From contig NZ_CP147012.1 in assembly GCF_037126285.1 (NCBI RefSeq), positions 3,116,676 to 3,180,675 of the forward strand: a stretch of DNA of 64,000 nucleotides, in the 5' to 3' direction. Position 1 is the first letter of the stretch; every line of letters starts with the position of its first letter. Position numbers and translations under genes: made by a program. Below, one piece after another: positions 8,432 to 64,000 of the stretch. The notes under the pieces were generated by a model that had not been told where the DNA came from, searched no databases, and saw nothing but the letters and a program-made list of their open reading frames with translations. The DNA is from Bernardetia sp. MNP-M8 (GTDB lineage: Bacteria > Bacteroidota > Bacteroidia > Cytophagales > Bernardetiaceae).

Positions 8432-8759
8432 AATTGATAAGATAAATTAGATAGTTGTTTGTGTGCTTTTATTGGAGTGGTGTTTTAAATATAGTACAAG
8501 ATAATCAATTCTTGACAAATTTTATTTGTTGGAATGATTGATAGAATACTATAAAGTTTTGATAGAATATTAAAAGACAGTTGATTATTTATGTTTTAAA
8601 TTTGTAAAAGAAAATAAGACTTTTTAAGGAACAATTACGAATTAAAAATTACAAATTACGAATTTAGTATATTCAATATCAATAAATTATTATTTCAAAA
8701 TAAGTAATTTAGTTCTATTCCTAAATAAATTTTTACACACAAATAATCATTTTTTAATT

Positions 8760-45386: not shown

Positions 45387-45507
45387 AAATTTTGTATTTT
45401 TGCAGGAAGATTTTAATCAAAACAAAAATCTTTCTCAAAAGATTATAAAAAATATACTATCAACTATAAGTTGTCCGTAATTTTTAATTCGTAATTCCTC
45501 CCAAGCT

Positions 45508-48325: not shown

Positions 48326-48608
48326 CTGATAGAATAGATAAATAATTTAATCGAAAGATTTAATAAAAAAGTAAATCAATTAAAACGAAAGTAATAGTTT
48401 TTTGTTCTCTATGCTAGTTATAGATTGAAATTAGTCTAAAACTAAAACAGAATTATCAAAAATACTTATAAAATTTAGTTTTCTGTAAAAGGATGACCTA
48501 ATTTTGCTTATAGAATTACGACCTGCCAAAGCAGTGAAGCTAATTACGAATTTTTCTCATTAAAAAAACTCTCATTTACAATAGTTATCAAAGAAACGCA
48601 GTTTCGAA

Positions 48609-62155: not shown

Positions 62156-62194
62156 AAAAACCGTTTTTAGATTTTTTCTAAAAACGGTTTTATT
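62156..62194. terminator. bidirectional terminator hairpin AAAAACCGTTTTT-N-AAAAACGGTTTT
   Basis: Read directly from the sequence, between convergent genes. Confidence 0.55.
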
Positions 62195-62204
62195 TGATAA
62201 AATT

Positions 62205-62432
62205 CTAAGCATATTCAATGCTCACAGTTTTATTTTCTACAAGATTAGGTTGTATATGATTTGCTAGAGTTACTTTCCATTTTTCCAAATCAAAGCCTCC
62301 TTTGTATCGTTCAGTTTTTTTTAAAATTGCAGTAACATGGTTGTCTTTTATTTCATAATTTACTGCAAAGCCTATTTTATTTATTTTAACAGACAAAATT
62401 TCAGCTTGCTCCTCATCTTTAAATATGTTCAT
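62205..62432 (-). CDS. small hypothetical protein
   Basis: 75 aa, downstream of the WGR-like gene. Confidence 0.25.
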   Translation of the reverse strand: MNIFKDEEQAEILSVKINKIGFAVNYEIKDNHVTAILKKTERYKGGFDLEKWKVTLANHIQPNLVENKTVSIEYA

Positions 62433-62537: not shown

Positions 62538-63440
62538 CTACAAAGTCAGCCAACGCACCAAAGGCAAAAGTTCGGTTTCCCATTGCCAATCATAAGCACT
62601 CAAATAAAGTGTTTCGCCATTTGGATATGATAATTCTATCTCATAAATATTCGAATTATCAATTTCCATAATTGGCTGTGAAAGGTCTTCTACTAATAAA
62701 GGTTCTTTGTGAGAAGTTTCTTCGTGATGCACATGGACAGTCTGAAAATTGACTTGTACGCTGTTCCATTCTTTTTTACGAAGCATTCTTTTGAGTTCTT
62801 TTTCTTGTTTAGGAAGTTCCCAACCCAAAACATAATTTCCCTGCATTTCTATCCACTGATTGCCTTTTGCCATATATTTTTTGGTATTTCTATATGAAAC
62901 AAGACAAGAAACAGGAGTTTGCATTCTATAATTTTGATACAACGAACGCAAACGCAGACGAGCAATAAATGGATTTTCGATAGATTTGAAACTATGTTGA
63001 TAATTTCTAGTAATAATCTGTTTCCAGTTTGCCCACGCAATACGACTTTTGGGAAAAGTATGTTCGTGAACAGTTCGGCTCTGCATCGTGCTTCCGATTG
63101 CACCATGAGTTACCCAAATTGTTTTTCCATGTAGTTCGCCTTCCCAAAAAGTATTTCCTTTTACCATATAAAGTGTTGCCGAATACTGCTCATCTTCACC
63201 CAAAGAATACATTCTGAATGTTCCGTTACACTCATAATCCCATTCTTCTTCTGTGGCAAGTTCGTCCATCCAAAGCGAAACTTCCGACTGAATGGCATGA
63301 AAACCTTTTTTTCGAAGTTCATTTTTTACATCTAAAGTAGTTGTAAAACCACGTTTTTTGAAATGCTCGTGTGCAACAAGCTGTATATCAATCAAAGAGA
63401 GTGTTTTCATTGTAGATTTATATTTAGAGTTTGAAATCAA
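62538..63440 (-). CDS. hypothetical protein with possible degenerate WGR-like segment
   Basis: 300 aa. The segment FRMYSL…IWVTHGAIGSTMQS…AWANW… loosely fits the WGR pattern (Y.lql…WGRiG..Gq…). Confidence 0.35.
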   Translation of the reverse strand: MISNSKYKSTMKTLSLIDIQLVAHEHFKKRGFTTTLDVKNELRKKGFHAIQSEVSLWMDELATEEEWDYECNGTFRMYSLGEDEQYSATLYMVKGNTFWEGELHGKTIWVTHGAIGSTMQSRTVHEHTFPKSRIAWANWKQIITRNYQHSFKSIENPFIARLRLRSLYQNYRMQTPVSCLVSYRNTKKYMAKGNQWIEMQGNYVLGWELPKQEKELKRMLRKKEWNSVQVNFQTVHVHHEETSHKEPLLVEDLSQPIMEIDNSNIYEIELSYPNGETLYLSAYDWQWETELLPLVRWLTL

Positions 63441-63548
63441 TTATGAACTGAAAGTCAGCGTAGCTAATTACGAATTAAAAATTACGATTGTAATAATGCT
63501 CTTGACTTTAAATAGTTAAGTGTAATTATCGTAATCCGTAATTATTTC

Positions 63549-64000
63549 CTAGTAATGCACTTCGACCAAATATCGAATTGTACATTGATTTTCTTTGTAG
63601 ATTATGAATTCATTATTGAATAAATCAATACCACCTTTTGCAAAAAGAGAATCAGCTTCTGAGTTTTGATTTTTTAGGTTTTCATAAGTCAGACCAGCGC
63701 ACCAATCTTCATATTCTTCAATTTTGAGCTGCCTGCCTGTATGTACTTCATAGATTGCTAAAAAGGCTTTTTTATCATTTCCTGATGTCCAAAAAGAACC
63801 TGCAAGAGATGTATAATTCAAAGATTTTCGGCATTTATCAGCAAAATAAAGTCCGTAGCCAAACATTTTTCCTGTAATAAGTGCATTAGTAGGACGTAAA
63901 ACCAAACCTGTTTTTAAGATAGAAAGCCAGTTTTCATTTCGACTTCCATGCCAGAGTAAATCTGTTGTTCTGTACTTGCTTTTTTTGAGAGCAGTAGCAA
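63549..64000 (-). CDS. poly/mono(ADP-ribose) polymerase (PARP) catalytic-domain protein, partial (5' end beyond window)
   Basis: The frame is open to the window edge. Translation …LLWHGSRNENWLSILKTGLVLRP…GKMFGYGLYFADKCRKSLNYTS…NEFIIYKENQCTIRYLVEV is collinear with the human PARP1 ART domain (LLWHGSRTTNFAGILSQGL…GKGIYFADMVSKSANYC…NEYIVYDIAQVNLKYLLKL). The H-G-S, Y, Y and catalytic E are all present. Confidence 0.8.
   Translation of the reverse strand, partial: ATALKKSKYRTTDLLWHGSRNENWLSILKTGLVLRPTNALITGKMFGYGLYFADKCRKSLNYTSLAGSFWTSGNDKKAFLAIYEVHTGRQLKIEEYEDWCAGLTYENLKNQNSEADSLFAKGGIDLFNNEFIIYKENQCTIRYLVEVHY

Follow-up and report, generated by a model that had tools for sequence, protein, structure and literature searches.

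At the right edge of a 64,000-nucleotide (nt) stretch of the genome of Bernardetia sp. MNP-M8 (contig NZ_CP147012.1; the whole stretch is called the window below), a gene for a PARP is followed on the same strand by a gene whose 290-amino-acid (aa) product begins with a winged-helix domain, and the two genes are linked with high specificity in Bacteroidota and in phages. The new element is this PARP-linked winged-helix domain and not the enzyme. We propose that the two genes form an ADP-ribosylation cassette in which the partner would act with the PARP at nucleic acid, be it as a targeting or co-sensing subunit, as a preferred acceptor, or as both, and we give this explanation about an even chance of being correct. 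An initial annotation of this DNA had already spoken of an ADP-ribosylation module, and the label is reasonable given that the two genes stay together across Bacteroidota and phages.

The linkage was followed in 80 genomic loci with PARP relatives (40 to 88% identity) from Bacteroidota and one metagenome-assembled genome labelled Rhodothermales, 75 of which are informative in that they leave enough room for a downstream gene. In 63 of these 75 loci, a profile search finds a winged-helix gene immediately behind that of the PARP, on the same strand, and the flanking DNA, 1.25 Mb in all, gave no other winged-helix match. A median of 100 nt separates the PARP match from the start of the winged-helix domain, and in about a dozen loci the gap between the PARP stop codon and the partner gene is merely 3 to 9 nt, which suggests co-translation. 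When 79 loci were compared, the winged-helix gene was the sole neighbour conserved past single lineages. In most genomes, the partner is a small protein of 82 to 104 aa that consists of the winged helix and a short tail, while a long form, in which the winged helix is followed by a WGR domain and a C-terminal domain, is found in Bernardetia and in seven other loci.

The same pair occurs in phages. A consensus winged-helix peptide matched nine viral contigs in IMG/VR, and six of them have a PARP homologue (30 to 38% identity) immediately upstream. The genome of Cellulophaga phage phi17:2 has, in this order, gp032 (a CCA-adding/poly(A) polymerase-type protein), gp031 (a PARP with 28% identity to that of Bernardetia), gp030, gp029 (DNA ligase) and gp028 (DNA methylase), and gp030, which is annotated as a "hypothetical protein", contains the winged-helix domain (E 3e-12). 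Among the viral structural matches to the model of the Bernardetia partner, its counterpart in phage phi4:1 ranks in the top two and is the best that bears a name. Given that the linkage persists down to 28% PARP identity and spans cells and phages, a functional partnership can be argued. In the searchable library of literature, no description was found of the partner or of the long form with a WGR that it takes in Bernardetia: the passages searched in papers on bacterial PARPs (including PMC5966428 and PMC4245714) mention neither a conserved neighbour nor a PARP-linked winged-helix/WGR gene.

Some loci depart from the simple pair or add to it. Many of the 82- to 104-aa partners end in an (A)FSxN tail that looks like a short linear motif (for instance, L008:2108-2392 and L047:3384-3671), and two tandem winged-helix genes stand behind the PARP in Fibrisoma (L059:11262-11935 and L066:11229-11901). 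In Microscillaceae, a PARP with no partner is followed by a 480-aa PolyA_pol/CCA-adding plus HD protein with 36% identity to gp032 of phage phi17:2, and this protein may be a second recurrent neighbour of PARPs (L043, L044, L049 and L050, at about 11.7-13.1 kb in L044; L092:2247-2984). In 18 loci of Spirosomataceae (L054-L081), the PARP is flanked by same-strand genes for pPIWI_RE_Z proteins of about 150 aa (PF18155, E 8e-17; for example, L066:12023-12478 and L071:7618-8646), and a WYL-WCX regulator is encoded about 1 kb upstream of the PARP on the opposite strand.

The enzyme and its partner protein

The window holds the 3′ part of the PARP gene (63549..64000, minus strand), in which a stop-free frame at 63549-63998 encodes 149 aa and then ends at the stop codon (63549-63551). 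The Pfam profile of the PARP catalytic domain (PF00644) matches this fragment alone with an E value of 1.3e-23 and 84 bits, against a curated cut-off of 26.7 bits, over profile positions 45-198 of 199; the catalytic domain that had been proposed at the window's right edge is thus real. The remainder of the gene was obtained from a 3.3-kb Logan contig (L001) that was found by an exact match to the downstream protein and whose DNA equals that of the window over the overlap. This contig lengthens the PARP frame to 462 aa, and a 467-aa protein from Bernardetia sp. MNP-M8 that is annotated as "ADP-ribose polymerase" (P0001) is 100% identical, so that the window encodes residues 319-467. In the product encoded on the contig, a WGR domain (residues 26-79, YGRVGQ) precedes a helical region, which in turn precedes the catalytic domain; the first two lie beyond the window edge, and extending the reading frame, as had been recommended, revealed them rather than an unrelated domain.

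The Pfam WGR profile (PF05406) matches the PARP's own WGR with an E value of 4e-4 and 20.8 bits, slightly below its cut-off of 22 bits, and there is no Pfam match to PARP_reg (PF02877) in the product encoded on the contig. In profile searches, the helical region aligns to the stretch that precedes the catalytic domain in PARP1 and PARP2. The PARP family profile aligns to human PARP2 in two stretches, one (E 1e-25) that starts with the WGR and reaches into the catalytic domain and another that covers the catalytic Glu. Judged by its sequence, the Bernardetia PARP is an enzyme of the usual fused WGR-helical-catalytic layout, an already known bacterial type.

The residues of the H-Y-E type active site are all in place, as had been predicted. 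On the minus strand, these are His335 (codon 63948..63950) in the motif WHGS, equivalent to H862 of PARP1; Tyr369 (63846..63848) in GLYFAD, within GYGLYFAD, equivalent to Y896; Tyr380 (63813..63815) in SLNY, equivalent to Y907; and the catalytic Glu448 (63609..63611) in NNEF, equivalent to E988. All four are invariant across 14 homologues (47 to 100% identity), the His, the first Tyr and the Glu were also placed by the alignment to PARP2, and in the family profile alignment the NAD-site residues line up with their human PARP2 counterparts. The position equivalent to Y986 of PARP1, two residues before Glu448, is occupied by an Asn that is invariant in the clade. This position influences chain length and branching in PARP1, and the H-Y-E residues by themselves cannot tell poly- from mono-transferases, PARP3 being an example. 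Polymer synthesis, DNA-dependent or not, is no more than a possible activity of the Bernardetia PARP.

More than 2600 related PARP protein clusters were scored, the named ones almost all from Bacteroidota and many with a precomputed PF05406 match. The gene is present in many families of this phylum and in several Bernardetia species (78 to 100% identity), among them B. litoralis DSM 6794 (P0011, 84% identity), a species that we take to have formerly been called Flexibacter litoralis. This breadth is at odds with the description of the gene as rare, patchy and horizontally acquired. So is the base composition: the comparison with the flanks gave a GC content of 0.32-0.37 for the pair against 0.26-0.36, no anomaly, and a recent horizontal transfer was rejected on this basis.

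The partner gene (62538..63410, minus strand) was called on two identical contigs. Its longest open reading frame (ORF) begins at TTG 63440, and every Bernardetia orthologue starts with MKTLSLIDIQ at the ATG at 63410. Because this start is conserved in all of them, it is likely the true one, and the distance between the two genes becomes 138 nt and not the 108 nt given before. The 290-aa protein has no significant match in Pfam, NCBIfam or PADLOC. Exhaustive searching by HMMER with a profile made from three sequences brought up 716 related clusters, of which about 28 are full-length relatives (280-330 aa), and an AlphaFold (AF2) model built on a 29-sequence alignment reached a mean pLDDT of 89.7.

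Three domains are seen in this predicted model. Residues 1-72 (63195..63410, minus strand), the PARP-linked part, carry the invariant motif TTTLDVKNxLR...Q..VS...W...NG.xR.Y and adopt a winged-helix fold, a three-helix bundle with a beta wing, that Foldseek recognises with a probability of about 1.0. Structure comparison of the model puts this fold in the class of the Fur, BlaI, PadR, ArsR and ArgR repressors, and there is weak sequence similarity to the N-terminal domain of ArgR. No Pfam or NCBIfam family matches the domain at threshold; weak Arg_repressor/argR matches have E values of 3e-4 in 2 of 88 relatives and of 0.006-2 elsewhere. Residues 150-290 (62541..62963, minus strand) form a confidently modelled, beta-rich C-terminal domain for which no relative could be assigned among the PDB, Pfam and BFVD matches listed.

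Between the two, residues 77-140 (62991..63182, minus strand; pI 10) form a WGR-like domain with H-G-A in place of W-G-R. The initial annotation had seen a WGR-like segment in this gene, and the domain is real. The model has the WGR fold, 4 of 11 full-length homologues match the Pfam WGR profile (best E 1e-6), and the partner family profile matches the WGR of PDB 2ra8 (E 2.5e-10). The signature itself has decayed: the Pfam profile finds nothing at E <= 1 in the window's protein, and the homologues share an xG(K/R/T)xG pattern in which the Gly alone is conserved, with W and R both absent in the window's protein. An hhalign comparison puts the segment in register with the PARP's WGR at an E value of 0.004, with a probability of only 8.6%. 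The domain is an additional, degenerate WGR and not one that the PARP is missing.

The winged-helix domain occurs in other combinations as well. In P0158, it is joined straight to the C-terminal domain of the long form, with no WGR in between, and elsewhere it stands in fusions with a wide variety of C-terminal modules (140-385 aa), for most of which Pfam has no match (P0151-P0271 and L083-L091). Some of these fusions are phage proteins with a recurring C-terminal segment of the form '...W.V...Y......R.AF.K..G......R'.

Possible roles of the partner

How the cassette would work can be outlined by analogy. As in PARP2, PARP3 and the Herpetosiphon enzyme, the Bernardetia PARP most likely becomes active once its WGR has bound to a break in DNA, and it would then move ADP-ribose from NAD+ to a presumed target, with the partner working alongside it at the nucleic acid in one or more of the capacities named at the outset. 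The constant part of the partner is the winged helix of about 70 residues, to which Bernardetia and a few other lineages add a degenerate WGR-like and a beta-rich domain. A stronger version, to which we give less than an even chance, makes the winged-helix protein an indispensable second subunit of the PARPs of Bacteroidota and phages, whether as a cofactor, as a targeting factor or as a dedicated acceptor, a role that we liken to that of the accessory factors of eukaryotic PARPs. The long form would then add a break-sensing WGR, and the cassette would be exchanged between hosts and phages and act on DNA ends during infection or repair.

Several observations weigh against these proposals. It is from gene linkage alone that we infer a physical interaction between the PARP and its partner. 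The partner is absent from 12 of the 75 informative loci, mostly in Microscillaceae and some Cytophagales, and the PARPs of proteobacterial phages (RAS14, FBKp34 and Xoo-sp13, of Stenotrophomonas, Xanthomonas and Klebsiella) have no winged-helix neighbour; thus, the enzyme can exist alone. Conversely, the winged-helix domain is also found in proteins that do not adjoin a PARP (L083 and L086) and in the other fusions described above. Among members, the winged-helix core carries net charges between -5 and +8, with -4 in the window's protein, so that uniform DNA binding is not assured, and the WGR of the partner lacks the signature W and R. Finally, a small winged-helix protein encoded in an operon also resembles a transcriptional regulator.

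This last resemblance leads to the alternative that the partner is a transcriptional (auto)regulator of the PARP operon, for instance, a repressor released on DNA damage, with the WGR and C-terminal domains of the Bernardetia protein serving as the sensor. We regard it as rather unlikely. The fold class shared with Fur, BlaI, PadR, ArsR and ArgR, the weak similarity to the ArgR N-terminal domain, and the small size of the partner and its place within the operon are what one would expect of a regulator, but the gene lies downstream of the enzyme, often only 3 to 9 nt away, and is neither upstream nor divergent. Furthermore, the pair is kept in phages whose PARPs have 28 to 38% identity, where a private one-gene regulator would be unusual, the spacer and upstream DNA have no operator conserved among Bernardetia species, and the winged-helix core is acidic in many members. 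A partner that works with the PARP is more likely than a simple local repressor. It has also to be asked whether the two genes make up a conflict module akin to toxin-antitoxin or abortive infection systems, in which the PARP would use up NAD+ or modify targets on sensing foreign DNA ends, the partner would restrain or license it, and the phage copies would be a counter-measure or a weapon. The presence of the pair in hosts and phages alike would fit such a module, as would the pPIWI_RE_Z-domain genes and WYL regulator that flank the Spirosomataceae loci, both typical of conflict loci, the downstream flank of the pair, which differs between Bernardetia species, and the fact that ADP-ribosyltransferases are common conflict effectors (PMC8120803). 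In PADLOC-DB 2.0, however, the PARP has no match and the partner only a borderline one (E 0.0096, 13 bits), and, unlike patchy defence islands, the gene is found in most sampled species of several families. Synteny is conserved in five Bernardetia loci, the GC content is ordinary and the flanks in Bernardetia are of a housekeeping type, all of which leads us to consider a conflict module improbable.

Two further alternatives can hardly be maintained. The initial annotation had proposed a split enzyme, in which a catalytic protein devoid of a WGR would be complemented in trans by a separate WGR protein, and the downstream protein does have a WGR-like domain. Given that the PARP has its own WGR (YGRVGQ) fused upstream, both on the identical contig and in the identical 467-aa protein, it is not split; the full-length sequence refutes the idea, and in other genomes a WGR is absent from the majority of partners, which makes complementation in trans extremely improbable. 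We give an equally slight chance to an accidental adjacency of the PARP and an unrelated 290-aa gene. A word-index search that returned just two related clusters made the gene look like an orphan at first, but the exhaustive HMMER search, together with tblastn on the PARP loci, revealed the family of 716 clusters. The partner, moreover, adjoins the PARP gene and shares its strand in 63 of the 75 loci, has no copy elsewhere in 1.25 Mb, and recurs with the PARP in phages.

Spacer and surroundings

The spacer between the PARP stop codon and the partner ATG (63411..63548, minus strand) was aligned with its counterparts, six orthologous spacers in all, and its sole part conserved among Bernardetia species is the stretch of about 35 nt before the partner ATG. 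There is no terminator-like site between the two genes in the window, and a fold z-score of -1.2 and the lack of a matching Rfam family give no sign of a structured RNA, so that both a structured RNA and a terminator were discarded as readings of the spacer.

Four motifs of an ATTACGA family, two forward and two reverse, had been pointed out in this spacer. They are present: ATTACGA lies at 63467 (+), 63481 (+) and 63529 (-), and ATTACGG lies at 63536 (-). What did not hold is any attachment to this locus. Both forward motifs are contained in a 20-nt unit, ATTACGAATTAAAAATTACG (63467..63486, plus strand), of which exact and near copies occur elsewhere in the window: an exact one at 45476-45495 (-) and one with a single mismatch at 8634-8653, with 4 matches in the 64-kb window against 0.08 expected. 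The inverted copies (TCGTAAT and CCGTAAT) take up 63529..63542 on the minus strand. Over the whole window, ATTACGA has 22 matches against 6 expected, and the orthologous spacers carry other sequences, similar ATTACGA-type motifs being found only in L007. The spacer motifs thus belong to a dispersed intergenic repeat, and, with the 20-nt unit recurring at 8634 and 45476 and the spacer unconserved between species, they were rejected as a locus-specific operator.

The AT-rich intergenic repeat built on ATTACGAATTAAAAATTACG is seen in the window at 8634-8660, 45476-45495 (-), 48515-48549 and 63467-63486, and it could represent a small element of the REP or MITE type in the Bernardetia genome. In two other Bernardetia spacers (L004:5237-5415 and L005:3111-3260), there is a different, GC-rich palindromic repeat that begins with CTCGTGAGGACACGAGC. 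It seems that small repeats tend to settle in the spacer between the PARP and its partner.

Downstream of the partner, a terminator scan found a hairpin of 15 pairs with a T-rich tail (62157..62191, minus strand), which likely ends the transcription unit. Between the partner and this hairpin lies a 75-aa ORF (62205..62432, minus strand) that was seen in this strain's contigs only; it has no family match and no relatives in the other loci, including the orthologous loci of Bernardetia. DNA similarity to the locus of Bernardetia OM2101 ends exactly at the partner stop codon and returns one last time, over 60 nt, right behind the terminator, and the pair therefore stands in a different downstream context in MNP-M8. 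The genes that flank the pair in Bernardetia are of a housekeeping type. It had been suggested that genes for erasers of ADP-ribosylation (PARG, macro or NUDIX) be looked for nearby, and none was found: the scan covered 12 ORFs at up to 10 kb from the orthologous locus of Bernardetia (L003) and 7 ORFs of the window at 55.8-62.4 kb, and no such gene is a conserved PARP neighbour in the 79 loci compared.

Relation to known systems

PARPs have been known in bacteria from about 2011 onwards, and what they do and modify in the cell is described as unknown (PMC8120803). A partner that adjoins the PARP in most of the sampled Bacteroidota lineages and in Cellulophaga phages is thus a concrete and testable lead: it provides a named protein to be studied together with the enzyme, and a cultured phage-host pair is available for genetics. 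If the winged-helix protein were an obligatory subunit, it would be the first defined partner for bacterial PARPs, and the phi17:2 pair gp030/gp031 would offer a tractable phage-host system. With a PARP of a kind that has been catalogued before and no genuine split architecture, the original observation is of lower value as it was written.

The closest known enzymes are those of the Cytophagales clade, which Garcia-Saura et al. 2018 (PMC5966428) describe as Clade 1.1, with a WGR-helical-PARP_cat layout, a YGR signature and no PARP_reg domain detectable by Pfam. The Bernardetia enzyme has the same layout, the YGR signature, the missing PARP_reg match and an intact H-Y-E, and is itself no different. 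For Flexibacter litoralis, Perina et al. 2014 (PMC4245714) list a PARP and, at other places in the genome, PARG, ARH3-like and macro genes.

Compared with human PARP2 and PARP3, which have the order WGR-HD-ART, the Bernardetia PARP has the same domain order and conserves the H, Y and E residues. The human enzymes are activated by 5′-phosphorylated DNA breaks. The Bernardetia PARP differs from them in having a short N-terminal tail with no detected domain and an insertion in the helical region, and both from them and from PARP1 in the Asn at the position of Y986. The partner, which belongs to the winged-helix proteins, is a further difference, and the Bernardetia system has no known HPF1-like factor. 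The PARPs of Herpetosiphon aurantiacus and Clostridioides difficile are likewise bacterial and contain a WGR. PMC8120803 reports that both are active in vitro, that the Herpetosiphon enzyme requires DNA, and that the matching PARG reverses the modification in both systems. In contrast, the conserved neighbour of the Bernardetia type is a winged-helix gene, and the ORFs scanned up to 10 kb from the orthologous locus include no gene for PARG, macro or NUDIX proteins.

The partner also differs from the stand-alone bacterial WGR proteins (PF05406; for instance, Q64V53 of Bacteroides fragilis, PDB 2ra8) in that it has a winged helix before the WGR and a different C-terminal domain after it, and in that the WGR of the window's protein is below Pfam detection, with W and R missing. 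A known counterpart of the cassette as a whole is the gp031 and gp030 pair of Cellulophaga phages phi17:2 and phi4:1, which has the same two genes in the same order and the same winged-helix domain, whereas gp030 carries a different C-terminal domain and no detectable WGR.

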